A DNA stretch of 64,000 bases from Candidatus Nitrospinota bacterium M3_3B_026 (GTDB lineage Bacteria; Nitrospinota_A; UBA7883; JBPRGF01), in the NCBI GenBank assembly GCA_051418015.1, contig JBPRGF010000023.1, positions 172,127 through 236,126 on the forward strand, read 5' to 3'. Positions 8,419 through 48,338 of this stretch are shown piece by piece. The stretch's first letter is position 1; each line of letters begins with the position of its first letter. The position numbers and the translations under genes are program-made. The notes beneath the pieces are model-generated. The model ran no database searches. It was not told the origin of the DNA and was given only the letters and a program-made list of their open reading frames with translations.

Positions 8419-9147
8419 CTACGTAACGCCCTTGCCAGTCTTCTCGCGCTCGAAATAGATGAACCTGCTGCAATGGGGGCAGCGGTGTATGTCGTCCGAC
8501 GTGCGGACGAGGTAGTAAAGCTGCGGCGGGATGAGCTGGTGGCATCCCTGGCACAGGTTGTCTCTGACCTGGACGACTCCCAGTCCCTCGCGGCTTTTCG
8601 AGACTCTCTCGTAGTTTTTGAGAACCGACGGGGTTATATTCGAAAGGATCGACTTCCGCTCGGCCAGCAGGGCGTCCAGCTCGGCGCGCTCCCGCGCCAT
8701 GACCGCCTCCTTCTCCGCCTTGACGGAGTTGAACTTCTTCTCCTCCTCCGCAACCTCCCCTTCCAGCGCCGCCCTGGCCGGGGCGCGGCTGTCGGTCTTT
8801 TCCATCAGCTCCAGCTGCTCATCCTCCATCCGCTTGATCCTGTTCTCGTACCCCTCCTGCTCCTTGAGGATGGCGCGGTACTCCACGTTGGTCTTCACCT
8901 GCGGAAGCTTGGCCTTGTCCTTGGCGATCTTCTCTTTAAGGTCGTCCACCTCTCTTTCGAGCTCTTTTCTCTTTTTCCCGTCCGCGTCCGTCTCCGCGTC
9001 GAACTCCGCGAGCCTGGCCCTTGCCTCCTCCAGCGCCGCGGAGGCCTGCTTGAGCTCTTCCGGGATGGATTTCAGGAGAGCCTCTTTTCCGGCGATCTTT
9101 GTGTCCAGTTTCTGGAGGGCTACGAGGCGTTCGAGATCGGCGTTCAT
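8419..9147 (-). CDS. zinc-ribbon domain protein (COG1579-like coiled coil with C-terminal C4 zinc ribbon)
   Basis: 242 aa. Long coiled coil, then CQGCHQLIPP...HRCPHCSRFIY. Confidence 0.65.
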   Translation of the reverse strand: MNADLERLVALQKLDTKIAGKEALLKSIPEELKQASAALEEARARLAEFDAETDADGKKRKELEREVDDLKEKIAKDKAKLPQVKTNVEYRAILKEQEGYENRIKRMEDEQLELMEKTDSRAPARAALEGEVAEEEKKFNSVKAEKEAVMARERAELDALLAERKSILSNITPSVLKNYERVSKSREGLGVVQVRDNLCQGCHQLIPPQLYYLVRTSDDIHRCPHCSRFIYFEREKTGKGVT

Positions 9148-42613: not shown

Positions 42614-44218
42614 ATGAAAAGATATTTCTTTCTGTTCGCGCTGAGTCTTGCGTTAATCACCACGTTTTACACGCCACAAGCCCTGGCGGAGCCCGAAGCG
42701 CCACCGTTGAACCAGGATGAATGGCACATCGCCAAGAGCATCTACTTCAACAGGTGCGCCGGCTGCCACGGCACCCTGAGGAAAGGCGCCACGGGGCCCA
42801 ACCTCCTTCCGGAGAAGACCCTCGAATTCGGCACGGAGACCATCAGGAGCTTCATTATGGAGGGGACCGAGGGGGGCATGCCGGCCTTCGGCAGGGGCGG
42901 AATCCTGACGCCGGAGGAGGTCGACATCATGGCCAGGTTCGTCCAGCATGACCCCGTGGCCCCGCCGGAGATGTCGCTGGCGGACATGATGGAAAGCTGG
43001 AACCTTGTCGTGCCGCCGAACAAGAGGCCGAAAAAGCCGGCCCACAACAGGAACTGGCAGAACTTCTTCGGCGTGGTCCTGCGCGACGCTGGCCAGGTGG
43101 CCATCATCGACGGCGACACCAAGGAGAAGGTATCCACCGTCAACACAGGCTTCGCGGTGCACATCCTGCGCGCCTCGGCGTCGGGCCGGTATATCTTCTC
43201 AATCGGCCGCGACGGCAAGGCGACCATGATCGACACCTGGATGAAAAAGCCGTCCATCGTGGCCGAGGTCAAGACCTGCTCCGAGGCCCGCTCCATCGAC
43301 ACCAGCAAATACGAAGGCTACGAGGACAAGTACGCCGTGGTGGGCTGCTACTGGCCGCCGCACTTCGTCGTCCTGAACGGCGCCACGCTGGAGCCGATGA
43401 AAATCGTCAGCACCAGAAGCTACACCTACGACTCGTATGAGTACCATCCCGAGCCCCGCGTGGCGGCGATCGTCTCCTCGCACTACAGCCCGGAGTGGGT
43501 CCTGAACGTCAAGGAGACGGGCTACGTCTGGCTGGTCGATTACTCCGATATCGAGAACATGAAGATCACCCAGATCGAGTCTGAGCGCTTCCTTCACGAC
43601 GGGGGCTGGGACGCCAAGCACCGCTACTTCATGGCGGCGGCGAACATGCGCGACACCATGGTTGTCATAGACACCAAGACCAGGAAGAAGGTGGCGCAGT
43701 TCAAGGTCGGCACCAAGCCGCACCCGGGCCGCGGCGGAAACTGGGTCGACCCGAAATACGGCCCCGTCTCGGGCACGGTGCACCTCGGCGAGGGACTGCT
43801 CTCGGTGTGGGGGTCCGACCCTGAGGGTCACCCGGAACACGCCTGGAAGGTCGTGAGAAGCATCGAGCTTCCCGGCGGCGCCGGCAGCCTGTTCATGAAG
43901 ACCCACCCCAAGAGCAAACACATGTGGATGGACTTCACCCTGAACCCGGACCCGAAGAACCATCGCAGCGTATGCGTGATGGACATCAACAAGCCTAACA
44001 CCAAGGACCTGAACTGTTTCCAGGTGACCGACCACGGACGCGTCGTGCACATGGAGTACAACAAGAAAGGGGACGAGGTGTGGCTGAGCGTCTGGGACAA
44101 GGAGGGCGAGCTGGTCATCTACGACGACAGGACCCTGAAGGTCAAGAAGAGGATCAAGGGTCTTCGCACTCCCACGGGCAAGTTCAACGTGTACAACACG
44201 CAGCACGACATCTACTGA
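42614..44218 (+). CDS. nirS: cytochrome cd1 nitrite reductase
   Basis: 534 aa. Signal peptide, haem c site IYFNRCAGCHGTLRKGATG, a d1 beta-propeller, and a C-terminus FNVYNTQHDIY near-identical to Pseudomonas NirS. Confidence 0.92.
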   Translation: MKRYFFLFALSLALITTFYTPQALAEPEAPPLNQDEWHIAKSIYFNRCAGCHGTLRKGATGPNLLPEKTLEFGTETIRSFIMEGTEGGMPAFGRGGILTPEEVDIMARFVQHDPVAPPEMSLADMMESWNLVVPPNKRPKKPAHNRNWQNFFGVVLRDAGQVAIIDGDTKEKVSTVNTGFAVHILRASASGRYIFSIGRDGKATMIDTWMKKPSIVAEVKTCSEARSIDTSKYEGYEDKYAVVGCYWPPHFVVLNGATLEPMKIVSTRSYTYDSYEYHPEPRVAAIVSSHYSPEWVLNVKETGYVWLVDYSDIENMKITQIESERFLHDGGWDAKHRYFMAAANMRDTMVVIDTKTRKKVAQFKVGTKPHPGRGGNWVDPKYGPVSGTVHLGEGLLSVWGSDPEGHPEHAWKVVRSIELPGGAGSLFMKTHPKSKHMWMDFTLNPDPKNHRSVCVMDINKPNTKDLNCFQVTDHGRVVHMEYNKKGDEVWLSVWDKEGELVIYDDRTLKVKKRIKGLRTPTGKFNVYNTQHDIY

Positions 44219-44301: not shown

Positions 44302-46017
44302 ATGACCTCGCCATCCATGACGCGGATCGCGGCTCTCATCCTTGCGCCGGTGTTTATCTCCGGCCCCGGATCGGCCTTCGCCGAAACTTCCGCGAAGAAC
44401 CTCTATGGGGAGCATTGCGCGAGCTGCCATCACCCGAAAAGGCTGGGGCTCACGGCCCCTCCCTTGATACCGGGTCTTTTTTCAAGAAGCGCCAAGGGCC
44501 GCCTGCCCCAAATAATCCGCGACGGGCTTCCGGCCACGCGGATGCCGGCTTTCGGCGGCGAGCTTTCTGATGAACAGATAAAACTTCTGGCGGAACTCAT
44601 ACAAGAACCGGCGAAGGAGTTGGACTGGACTTTTGAGGACATACGGTCTAGCAAGATTGACATTGACGAGCCTGGAAAAGTTTTAAGAGCCGACATCGAG
44701 AATATAACGCTGGTCATGGAGCGCGGGACGCAGAGCCTCGTCGTTCTGGACGGCGCGGATTTCAGCGAGCTCGGCAGGTTCCACGTGGGCGCCGTCCACG
44801 GCGGGCCGAAGTTTTCGTATTCCCTGGATCGTGTGTACGCCCTTGCCAGGGACGGGATACTGACAAGCTATAATCTGAGAGCCCTTTCCGCCGAGACCAG
44901 GCTCAAGGCGGGGATAAACTCCCGCTCCGTCGCCGTATCAAGCGGCGACAAAACGGTGGCCGTGGCCAATTACCTTCCGTCCAACGTCGTCCTTTTCGAC
45001 AAAGACCTGGAGCCCGTCGGCGAGATACCACTGCCCGGAAAGGCGGGGGGGTTCTACTCGCTGCCGTCCCTGAAAAGCTTCGCCCTGTCGTTCAGGGAGA
45101 TTCCGGAACTCTGGATAATCGGCGAGAGCCCGCCTTTCGAGATCGAAAAACGAAAGCTGCCCGAGGCTTTCCAGGATTTTTCGGTCAGTCCCGTCAAGCC
45201 TTACATAATCGGGACGAAACGGGGCGGCGATCATATGTACATCTACGACTACATGGAGGACAGGATACTCAAAAAGATCCCCACCAGCGGCCTGCCGCAC
45301 CTGGCCTCGGCCGCGTTCTACATACACAAGGGCGAGCTTTTCGCCGGGGTCAACCACATAAAAAAGCCAGCGGCCACGATCATATCCCTCGACCGGCTCG
45401 ACAAGGTGGCCGAGATACCCCTTCCCGGCGCGGGCTTTTTCGTCCGGACGCATCATGCCACGCCGTACCTGTGGATAGATACCGAGACGGAGCGGATCGC
45501 CCTCGTGAACAAGGACGACTTCTCCGATATCCGCTACCTGACGCCCCACGAGGGGCGCAAGGCGATGCACGTGGAATTCACCAAGGAGGGCGCCCGCGCC
45601 CTGGTCACCATCCCGGGCAGGGGCGGCGAGGTGGTCATATACGACGCGAAGACCCTGGAAAAGATCAACGCCATCCCCTTCGAACGGCCCGTCGGCAAGT
45701 ACAACGCCACGAACAAGACGTACCCGGGCAGATCGCTCGCGGCGCGGAAGGCGGATGGGGCCAGCGCGGGCAAACAGGTCTTCGACAAATACTGCATGGG
45801 GTGCCACCACCAGGTCTACGAGGCGTTCGGGCCATCCTTCACCCGGATAGCCAGGGAGAGGGGCGCGGCAAGGATAAAGTTTCACATCCTGTCGCCCGAG
45901 GCCAGCGCAAAGACCCTGGGGTACAAGAGAAACTCCATGCCCAGGATAAAACTTTCGCCGGAGCAGCTGGAGGCGATAGTCAGATACATAAAAAGCTTCG
46001 GCCAGACGGGGGGATAA
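44302..46017 (+). CDS. nirN: cd1-family beta-propeller protein with N- and C-terminal c-type cytochrome domains (NirN-like fused to a NirC-like cytochrome c)
   Basis: 571 aa. Signal peptide. CASCHH at the N-terminus, a d1-type propeller, and a second CMGCHH motif in a C-terminal domain of about 90 aa. Confidence 0.65.
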   Translation: MTSPSMTRIAALILAPVFISGPGSAFAETSAKNLYGEHCASCHHPKRLGLTAPPLIPGLFSRSAKGRLPQIIRDGLPATRMPAFGGELSDEQIKLLAELIQEPAKELDWTFEDIRSSKIDIDEPGKVLRADIENITLVMERGTQSLVVLDGADFSELGRFHVGAVHGGPKFSYSLDRVYALARDGILTSYNLRALSAETRLKAGINSRSVAVSSGDKTVAVANYLPSNVVLFDKDLEPVGEIPLPGKAGGFYSLPSLKSFALSFREIPELWIIGESPPFEIEKRKLPEAFQDFSVSPVKPYIIGTKRGGDHMYIYDYMEDRILKKIPTSGLPHLASAAFYIHKGELFAGVNHIKKPAATIISLDRLDKVAEIPLPGAGFFVRTHHATPYLWIDTETERIALVNKDDFSDIRYLTPHEGRKAMHVEFTKEGARALVTIPGRGGEVVIYDAKTLEKINAIPFERPVGKYNATNKTYPGRSLAARKADGASAGKQVFDKYCMGCHHQVYEAFGPSFTRIARERGAARIKFHILSPEASAKTLGYKRNSMPRIKLSPEQLEAIVRYIKSFGQTGG

Positions 46018-46018
46018 G

Positions 46019-47188
46019 ATGTTCAGACTAAGCCATTATTACAACATAGCTGAAGGGCGCGCGGGCCGCGGCGGAAAGTCCCATGGCGCCAGATGCGGCG
46101 GGAAGCCGATCGTGATATGGAACCTCACGAGGACATGCAACCTCTCGTGCGTCCATTGCTACGCCTCGTCGAAGGCGCGCGGCTACAGCAGGGAGCTTTC
46201 CACGGAGCAGGCCGTCTCGGTCATGGACGGCCTTTACGCCGCCGGGGTGAGAACGGTCATCCTCTCCGGCGGCGAGCCGATGATCCGCGGGGATATCCTT
46301 AACCTTGCCGCAAGCGCTAAAGAAAAAGGCTTCATGACCTCCATCTCCACCAACGGCACACTTATAGGAGAGAAGGAGGCGGACAGGATAGCCGCCGCGG
46401 GGCTGGACTACGTCGGCGTGAGCCTGGACGGCATCGGCGAGACCCACGACCGCGTCCGGGGCGTCGAAGGCTCTTTCGAGCAGGCCGTGGCGGGGCTTTT
46501 CAGGCTGGCGGAGCGGGGGGTAAAATGCGGCGTGCGTTTCACGCTGACGAGGATGAACATGAACGACCTGCCGGCGATCTTCGAGTTCGCCGAGAAGAAC
46601 GGGATAGGGAAAATATATTTATCACACCTCGTCTACTCCGGCAGGGGTGGCGTCAATCGGGGGGAGGACGTCACCCCGGCTGAGACGAGGGAAGCGATGG
46701 ATTACGTTTTCAGCAAGGCGCGGGAGTACACGCGGCGCGGGCGCGGGCCGCAGATCGTCACCGGGAACAACGACGCCGACGCCGCGTACCTGCTCCTGCG
46801 TCTCATGGAGGGGAGCCCGGAGGGGGCCGAGCGGCTCCTGCCGGTGATGGAGAGGTTCGGCGGGGCCAACGCCGGGGTGGGGGTCGCGAACATAGACCCC
46901 ACCGGTGAGGTCCACCCCGATCCTCTCATGTCCTCCGTGAACCTGGGGAACGTCACCGAAAAATCTTTCGGTGAGATATGGCATGACTCCGAAAACCCCG
47001 TCCTGAAAAGGCTCCGGGCGAGGCCCCGCGTCTTCAACGGCCGGTGCGGACGGTGCGCCTGGCTGAAGGTGTGCGGCGGCTCCTGCCGCGTCCGGGCTCT
47101 GCGGATGACGGGGGACATGTGGGGTCACGACCCCGCCTGCTACCTTACCGACGAGGAAACCCAGGTTGAGCTTGCGCAGGCTGTATAG
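46019..47188 (+). CDS. nirJ: haem d1 biosynthesis radical SAM protein
   Basis: 389 aa. CNLSCVHCY radical SAM cluster plus a C-terminal SPASM-like Cys cluster (CGRCAWLKVCGGSC). Lies in the nir context. Confidence 0.8.
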   Translation: MFRLSHYYNIAEGRAGRGGKSHGARCGGKPIVIWNLTRTCNLSCVHCYASSKARGYSRELSTEQAVSVMDGLYAAGVRTVILSGGEPMIRGDILNLAASAKEKGFMTSISTNGTLIGEKEADRIAAAGLDYVGVSLDGIGETHDRVRGVEGSFEQAVAGLFRLAERGVKCGVRFTLTRMNMNDLPAIFEFAEKNGIGKIYLSHLVYSGRGGVNRGEDVTPAETREAMDYVFSKAREYTRRGRGPQIVTGNNDADAAYLLLRLMEGSPEGAERLLPVMERFGGANAGVGVANIDPTGEVHPDPLMSSVNLGNVTEKSFGEIWHDSENPVLKRLRARPRVFNGRCGRCAWLKVCGGSCRVRALRMTGDMWGHDPACYLTDEETQVELAQAV

Positions 47189-48338
47189 CGCTGTTATCCC
47201 GGCCGTTCTCGCGCTCGCGGCAGCAGCGGCGACAGCGGGCGAGTGGGGCACGGGGGCGCTCATGGTGGTCATCGAGCGCGAAAGCGGCTCCGTCCTGGTC
47301 ATAGACTCCGCCCAGGACCACAAAGTCCTGGGCAGGATAGAGGGTCTCGGCGTACTGCATCACGCATCGGTCTCCTTCTCCCGCGGCGGGCGCTACGGCT
47401 ACGTCGTCAGCCGCGACGGCTTTTTGAGCAAGATCGACCTTCTGAGGCTCGAAGTCACCGCCAGGGTGAAGGTGGGAGAGAGCGCCATCGGGCTGGCTGT
47501 CACGCAGGACGGGAAACATATCGCCATCAGCAATTACAAGCCGGGGAACATCGTCATCGTCTCCGATGAGACTTTTGAGATCGTAAAGACCATAGACGCC
47601 GACGAGTCGAAGACCGTCGGCCTCGTGGACGCCCCGGAGAACAGGCTGGTGGTCTCTTTAATGGACGCGAACGAGATATGGGTAATAGACGCGAACGATC
47701 CGGATTTCCCCGTCATCAAAAAGTTCAAGGACGTCGGCGAGAAGCCATACGACGGCCTGCTGACTCCCGACGGGCGGTATTACATCGCCGGGCTTTTCCA
47801 TTCCCCGTGGGCGGCGATGGTGGACCTCTGGAGCATGGACGGGGTTGAAAAAATCCCGCTGCCCGTCCCGCCCGAAAAAAAGGACAAACCGCCGGTCCTG
47901 AAGATCCCCCACCTGGAGGGGTGGATCATGGCCGGGCAGGGCCTTTTCGCGCCGGTGATAGGCGGCTCCGGGCTGGCGCTGATCGACATGGAGACATGGA
48001 AGGTAAAGAAGGTGATAGACCTGCTGGCATACCCCGTCTTCGCCATGGCCCAGCCGGACATGAGGAGGATATGGACCAACTACGTCCTGGGCGAACACCA
48101 CGACACCGTGCAGGTCGTGGACGTGAAAACCCTCGAGGTGGTCAAAACCCTCAAACCCGGCGACAAAATTTTCCACATGCAGTTCACGCCCAAGGGCGGC
48201 GCCGTCTACCTCTCCTCCAACGGCGACGACAAGGTCCTGATCTACGACACGAAGACTTTTGGGCTTGTCAGGGAGATATCAGCCAGAAAACCATCCGGGA
48301 TATTCTCAAGCGCCCGCTCCGCCACCTTCGGGCTGTGA
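47166..48338 (+). CDS. nirF: haem d1 biosynthesis protein NirF (d1-type propeller without haem c)
   Basis: 390 aa. Signal peptide. cd1-propeller-like repeats. No CxxCH. Confidence 0.7.
   Translation: MSLRRLYSAVIPAVLALAAAAATAGEWGTGALMVVIERESGSVLVIDSAQDHKVLGRIEGLGVLHHASVSFSRGGRYGYVVSRDGFLSKIDLLRLEVTARVKVGESAIGLAVTQDGKHIAISNYKPGNIVIVSDETFEIVKTIDADESKTVGLVDAPENRLVVSLMDANEIWVIDANDPDFPVIKKFKDVGEKPYDGLLTPDGRYYIAGLFHSPWAAMVDLWSMDGVEKIPLPVPPEKKDKPPVLKIPHLEGWIMAGQGLFAPVIGGSGLALIDMETWKVKKVIDLLAYPVFAMAQPDMRRIWTNYVLGEHHDTVQVVDVKTLEVVKTLKPGDKIFHMQFTPKGGAVYLSSNGDDKVLIYDTKTFGLVREISARKPSGIFSSARSATFGL

Follow-up and report, generated by a model that had tools for sequence, protein, structure and literature searches.

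In Pseudomonas aeruginosa, NirN (6RTD/6RTE) consists of an N-terminal class I cytochrome c domain followed by a d1-type eight-bladed propeller, and is encoded in a cluster with nirS, nirJ and nirF. NirN oxidises dihydro-haem d1, a substrate that is made by NirF together with NirC (reported in 2026), and NirC, which exchanges electrons with NirN in vitro, is possibly the electron acceptor (PMC13168839). NirF, NirN and NirS associate transiently in one complex; in P. aeruginosa, NirN is scarcer than NirS (PMC3694632). Two small cytochromes of the same organism belong to this setting: NirC (cytochrome c55X; 6TP9), a periplasmic mono-haem His/Met cytochrome whose gene adjoins nirF in nir clusters, and NirM (c551; 351C), encoded directly after nirS, which donates respiratory electrons to NirS as a free protein, with no known fusion to a maturation enzyme. 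A cd1-family protein that gained an extra cytochrome c by fusion has been described in one lineage, the Chloroflexi C1-C2-NirS (PMC8756737), where the extra domain is N-terminal on NirS. In the protein described here, NirN::c, the extra domain is C-terminal and is carried by the biosynthetic paralogue NirN; no published NirN with a C-terminal cytochrome was found in the literature outside subscription journals. The gene lies in a 64-kb stretch of Candidatus Nitrospinota DNA, the whole of which was analysed and is henceforth referred to as the window.

Architecture and genomic setting of NirN::c

The frame encoding NirN::c was read as a single, uninterrupted one, and from an alternative start at position 44317 it corresponds to the public gene call P0001 (566 aa), at 100% identity. 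The features of the gene and its neighbours are collected in Table 1. The predicted Sec signal peptide, over which pLDDT is <50, implies that NirN::c is a periplasmic protein. In the N-terminal domain, where Pfam places Cytochrome_CBB3 at residues 29-98, the haem motif CASCH occupies residues 39-43 and Met81 is the probable axial ligand; in a 30-sequence alignment M81 is invariant, and C39, C42 and H43 are nearly so.

Table 1. Features of nirN::c and the adjoining nir genes (positions in the window)
Feature	Position	Strand	Basis
nirS, cytochrome cd1 nitrite reductase, directly 5' of nirN::c in the same operon	42614..44218	+	PF02239, E 7e-131; conserved synteny
nirN::c, three-domain NirN-cytochrome c fusion	44302..46017	+	complete ORF, 571 aa + stop
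Predicted Sec signal peptide, residues 1-27 (cleavage between GSAFA and ETS)	44302..44382	+	sequence; cleavage site inferred
First cytochrome c domain (N-terminal, class I, NirC-like), residues 29-105	44386..44616	+	PF13442; 6rtd alignment; HMM
d1-type eight-bladed beta-propeller, residues 131-472	44692..45717	+	PF02239 (Cytochrom_D1), E 1.7e-53
Connector from propeller to second cytochrome domain, residues 473-487	45718..45762	+	pLDDT <50 at 483-487
Second cytochrome c domain (C-terminal, class I), residues 488-565	45763..45996	+	Pfam Cytochrom_C, E 4e-13
nirJ, radical SAM haem d1 biosynthesis enzyme	46019..47188	+	TIGR04051 rSAM_NirJ, E 4e-137; synteny
nirF, d1-type propeller without haem c domain	47166..48338	+	PF02239, E 3.5e-80, no CxxCH; synteny

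To place the first two domains, residues 25-473 were compared with NirN, NirS and NirF. The match to the NirN structure 6rtd (phmmer, E 6e-80, 272 bits) was far above the ~60 bits (about 1e-15) obtained with NirS and NirF; P. aeruginosa NirN and the window protein share 34% identity across 463 aligned columns, and the haem c domain of 6rtd aligns with the N-terminal domain of NirN::c. Foldseek returned the same order of preference, with NirN at E 5e-44 (TM 0.85), NirS at 7e-30 and NirF at 2e-20. The tetrapyrrole-pocket residues H166 (in VHGGPKF), H333 (in GLPHLAS), H384, H423, R183, R208 and R382 are invariant in the 30-sequence alignment, and 6rtd carries identical residues at all seven aligned positions. 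By these comparisons residues 25-473 clearly correspond to a NirN-type protein, the propeller of which is predicted to bind dihydro-haem d1.

Canonical NirN stops a few residues past the motif GKYN, whereas the window protein runs ~100 residues further and includes a second His/Met haem c domain (~85 aa; henceforth referred to as the C-domain). Because the two-domain ending just past the propeller is lacking, we class NirN::c as a variant of NirN. The haem motif of the C-domain, CMGCH, occupies residues 498-502 (nt 45793-45807) and its axial ligand is Met546 (nt 45937-45939). C498, C501, H502 and M546 are all invariant in the alignment and the second haem motif is kept in 33/33 of the closest homologues, a conservation that far exceeds chance. 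Thus, the first-pass annotation, which had read this gene from the letters alone as a NirN-like protein bearing an additional C-terminal cytochrome c domain with a second haem motif, was correct in both respects. The connector, counted from GKYN to CxxCH, measures 28-48 residues in Nitrospinota (29 in the window protein); the other group of fused proteins has a constant length of 21.

The start of nirJ lies 1 nt beyond the nirN::c stop codon. Across the whole window, plausible cytochrome ORFs contain CxxCH once in NirS, twice in NirN::c and nowhere else; a CQGCH-containing ORF at 8419-9147 on the reverse strand was rejected as a cytochrome and is a zinc-ribbon protein. The absence of separate nirC and nirM genes, which had been noted for the cluster, therefore extends to any separate small cytochrome c gene anywhere in the 64-kb window.

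Affinities of the C-domain among small cytochromes

The C-domain aligns to class I cytochrome c folds, and the earlier description of it as being of the NirC/NirM type needs to be divided. The signature of NirC consists of a conserved Asp that precedes CxxCH and a GGLG loop that follows (PMC7137109); in the C-domain, the sequence around the haem motif reads KYCMGCHHQVYEAFGPSF and contains neither the Asp nor the loop. Alignment of the C-domain with P. aeruginosa NirC by hhalign gave a probability of 2.2%, and NirC scored 0.2 bits on the C-domain HMM as opposed to 32.6 bits on the HMM of the N-terminal domain. On this evidence the C-domain is not NirC: no homology between them is discernible past the class I fold, and it is the N-domains of NirN and NirS that NirC matches. 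The stand-alone relatives of the C-domain (see below) resemble NirC in position only, lying beside nirF or nirJ in 33 loci.

The NirM half of the description stands, as a remote relationship. Against NirM/c551, hhalign gave 93% (E 3.4e-7, 73 columns), and P. stutzeri c551 (1cor) matched the C-domain at E 5e-4. The features CxxCH...GP-x-[YF]-x-x-[IV]-A and Met-Pro are common to both, although identity is ~18% and the NirM c551 fold (compact c8, ~82 aa) ranked 33rd in Foldseek with a TM of 0.56. The nearest solved structures are instead the mono-haem cytochrome c of Rhodothermus marinus (3CP5) and the cytochrome domain of caa3 subunit II (1W2L, 2YEV). These proteins feed haem-copper oxidases, whereas the C-domain family is known only from nir haem d1 clusters. 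An origin of the C-domain as a tandem copy of the first haem domain in the same protein was also considered and rejected, the two domain HMMs cross-matching at ~12-26 bits compared to 80-138 bits for self-matches. We assign the C-domain to a distinct cytochrome family that is specific to nir clusters.

Distribution of the fusion and of the cytochrome family

The same three-domain protein was recovered from 40 species-representative loci besides the window, distributed over Nitrospinota, Aquificota, Campylobacterales, Thiotrichales and Thermodesulfovibrionales, and NirN with a C-terminal cytochrome is thus conserved across several bacterial phyla. In the window and in all 40 loci the gene order is nirS-nirN::c-nirJ-nirF, and the C-domain is always fused to NirN and never to NirS or NirF. 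The family also has a stand-alone form, found in 33 loci directly upstream of nirJ or nirF. The stand-alone cytochromes are common in Campylobacterota, whereas the fused forms occur in Nitrospinota, Aquificota, some Campylobacterales and Thiotrichales. Fused and stand-alone members form one tight family with 39-57% identity and 15 invariant columns.

The existence of stand-alone versions, and of a suspect read-through protein in the databases (NirN-c-NirJ, P0131, 922 aa), would fit a sequencing or assembly error that joined nirN to an adjacent small cytochrome gene. Such a merger is extremely improbable, a frameshift or assembly artefact being ruled out by the frame, which is continuous here, in 33 independent homologues and in the 40 loci across several phyla, as befits one gene and not two ORFs. 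Furthermore, the fused cytochrome follows the propeller directly without a signal peptide of its own, whereas the stand-alone proteins have N-terminal hydrophobic signal-like segments.

Among 1.84 billion representative proteins, the single-stretch matches of at least about 85 bits were confined to NirN fusions and fragments of these, to the stand-alone cytochromes (104-152 aa) and to one di-haem protein, P0150. The latter, encoded on two contigs in the same operon slot, has a NirC-type domain joined directly to a member of the C-domain family with no propeller between them, and scores 32 bits to P. aeruginosa NirC and 80 bits to the C-domain family. Given P0150, pairing of the C-domain family with a NirC-type haem is a recurrent feature, as expected of a partner.

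We considered whether the C-domain has displaced NirC, that is, whether it serves NirF and not NirN in turning the NirJ product into dihydro-haem d1, and is carried on NirN by virtue of a shared NirF/NirN complex. NirC orthologues have been reported from almost every NirS producer, and NirF requires NirC in vitro (PMC7137109, PMC13168839), but no stand-alone NirC-type ORF is present within 10 kb in the 73 family-bearing loci or in the window, and the stand-alone genes adjoin nirF or nirJ, all of which would suit such a replacement. However, P0150 contains a NirC-type domain and a member of the C-domain family in one polypeptide and the fused NirNs retain a NirC-like N-domain of their own; since both carry the two types, these co-occur and are not mutually exclusive. 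The surface signature of Asp-CxxCH and GGLG, the proposed dock for NirF, is moreover missing from the C-domain, and we regard displacement of NirC as quite improbable.

Towards the distant fused group, the C-domain retains 51% identity compared to 35% for the NirN core, and this better conservation of the C-domain indicates strong constraint. In a neighbour-joining tree of NirN cores, built on crude p-type distances, the two fused groups were supported in 46/60 and 59/60 bootstrap replicates and were sisters in 0/60; a tree of this kind does not prove two separate origins of the fusion over a single one.

A candidate redox partner in haem d1 maturation

The architecture, haem ligands, conservation, synteny and fused or split pattern were observed; which way the electrons flow, and between which partners, we infer in the proposal that follows. 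At about an even chance, the C-domain would be an integral redox partner through which electrons leave haem d1 maturation. In this reading a small, dedicated cytochrome c with His/Met ligands, fused to the C-terminus of NirN, would receive the electrons released by the two-electron oxidation of dihydro-haem d1 by NirN and possibly also by keto-group formation by NirF. The C-domain would have the NirC-type haem c domain as its redox partner: electrons would pass from the NirC-type haem to the second one and then enter the periplasmic electron-transfer pool (NirS, NO reductase or oxidase), and the maturation enzyme would turn over without a separate carrier.

Several observations speak against this relay. 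The C-terminus of the d1 propeller lies at the propeller bottom, opposite the N-terminal haem domain (NirF structure preprint), and with a connector of down to 21 residues, haem-to-haem transfer within a monomer may be geometrically impossible. In sequence and structure, the C-domain family bears a resemblance to respiratory carriers (c551, the mono-haem cytochrome c of R. marinus, the caa3 domain). In split loci the free cytochrome comes after a cd1 gene that is possibly the nitrite reductase itself, an arrangement which also fits a NirM-like donor, and the two-domain NirN clusters of two loci (L034 and L036) encode no small cytochrome within 10 kb.

A rival reading is that the C-domain is a respiratory donor, equivalent to NirM/c551, which feeds NirS or, in this organism, the CuA centre of a neighbouring haem-copper enzyme, with the tether to NirN serving co-expression and co-localisation only. 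In subunit I of this enzyme (WGFGHSSQQ) Gln replaces the cross-linked active-site Tyr, and subunit II has the CuA-type motif H...CxExCxxxHxxM and no CxxCH; both features are conserved in five loci (L001, L002, L005, L019 and L035). As Gln for Tyr and a CuA subunit II without haem c are the criterion for eNOR (PMC8756737), the neighbouring enzyme is probably an eNOR. In L001 and L002 a CxxCH protein of ~227 aa adjoins oxidase subunit II. Of this protein the window has only a short transmembrane N-terminal part with no haem motif, and it was rejected as a dedicated donor there.

The first-pass annotation had suggested that the fused protein might donate electrons to this CuA subunit. As a general explanation this found no support, since the oxidase module is nearby in only 5/20 of the fused loci whose upstream flank spans the full 10 kb and the fusion is kept in Persephonella loci without the module; the qNOR of P. 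marina is, in addition, quinol-dependent (PMC11214002). In this organism alone, such donation may still apply. Other points against a respiratory donor are that the fusion is always on NirN and never on NirS, and that in many fused loci of Aquificota, Campylobacterales and Thiotrichales other cytochromes encoded a few kb from nirS (di-haem, ~195 aa; mono-haem, ~230 aa) could fulfil the respiratory role. A 1:1 tether to a maturation factor that is much scarcer than NirS in P. aeruginosa (PMC3694632) would also be a poor fit for a bulk donor. Overall, we consider a purely respiratory role unlikely and favour the redox partner in maturation. We suggest only tentatively, as possible but on balance somewhat doubtful, that the C-domain defines an as yet unnamed accessory cytochrome family of haem d1 clusters, that this family is the missing physiological electron acceptor for the periplasmic oxidations of haem d1 maturation (by NirN, and by NirF with its NirC-type partner), and that in Nitrospinota and some Aquificota it couples the making of the cofactor to the neighbouring NO reductase of eNOR type.

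The fusions found in Nitrospinota, Aquificota and Campylobacterota MAGs are labelled only as 'c-type cytochrome', as 'cytochrome D1 domain-containing protein' and even as 'nitrite reductase', and such labels could inflate the number of nirS-type denitrifiers counted in metagenomes of vent, groundwater and marine origin. With regard to the fate of the electrons from NirF and NirN and to the role of NirC, NirN::c supplies a concrete candidate partner, and offers one polypeptide in which haem-to-haem transfer during d1 maturation could be measured. NirN::c thereby hints at how electrons leave the haem d1 maturation step and, if the more tentative suggestion on the accessory family is true, the fused, split and di-haem forms would be a natural Rosetta stone for a NirF-NirN-cytochrome maturation complex.

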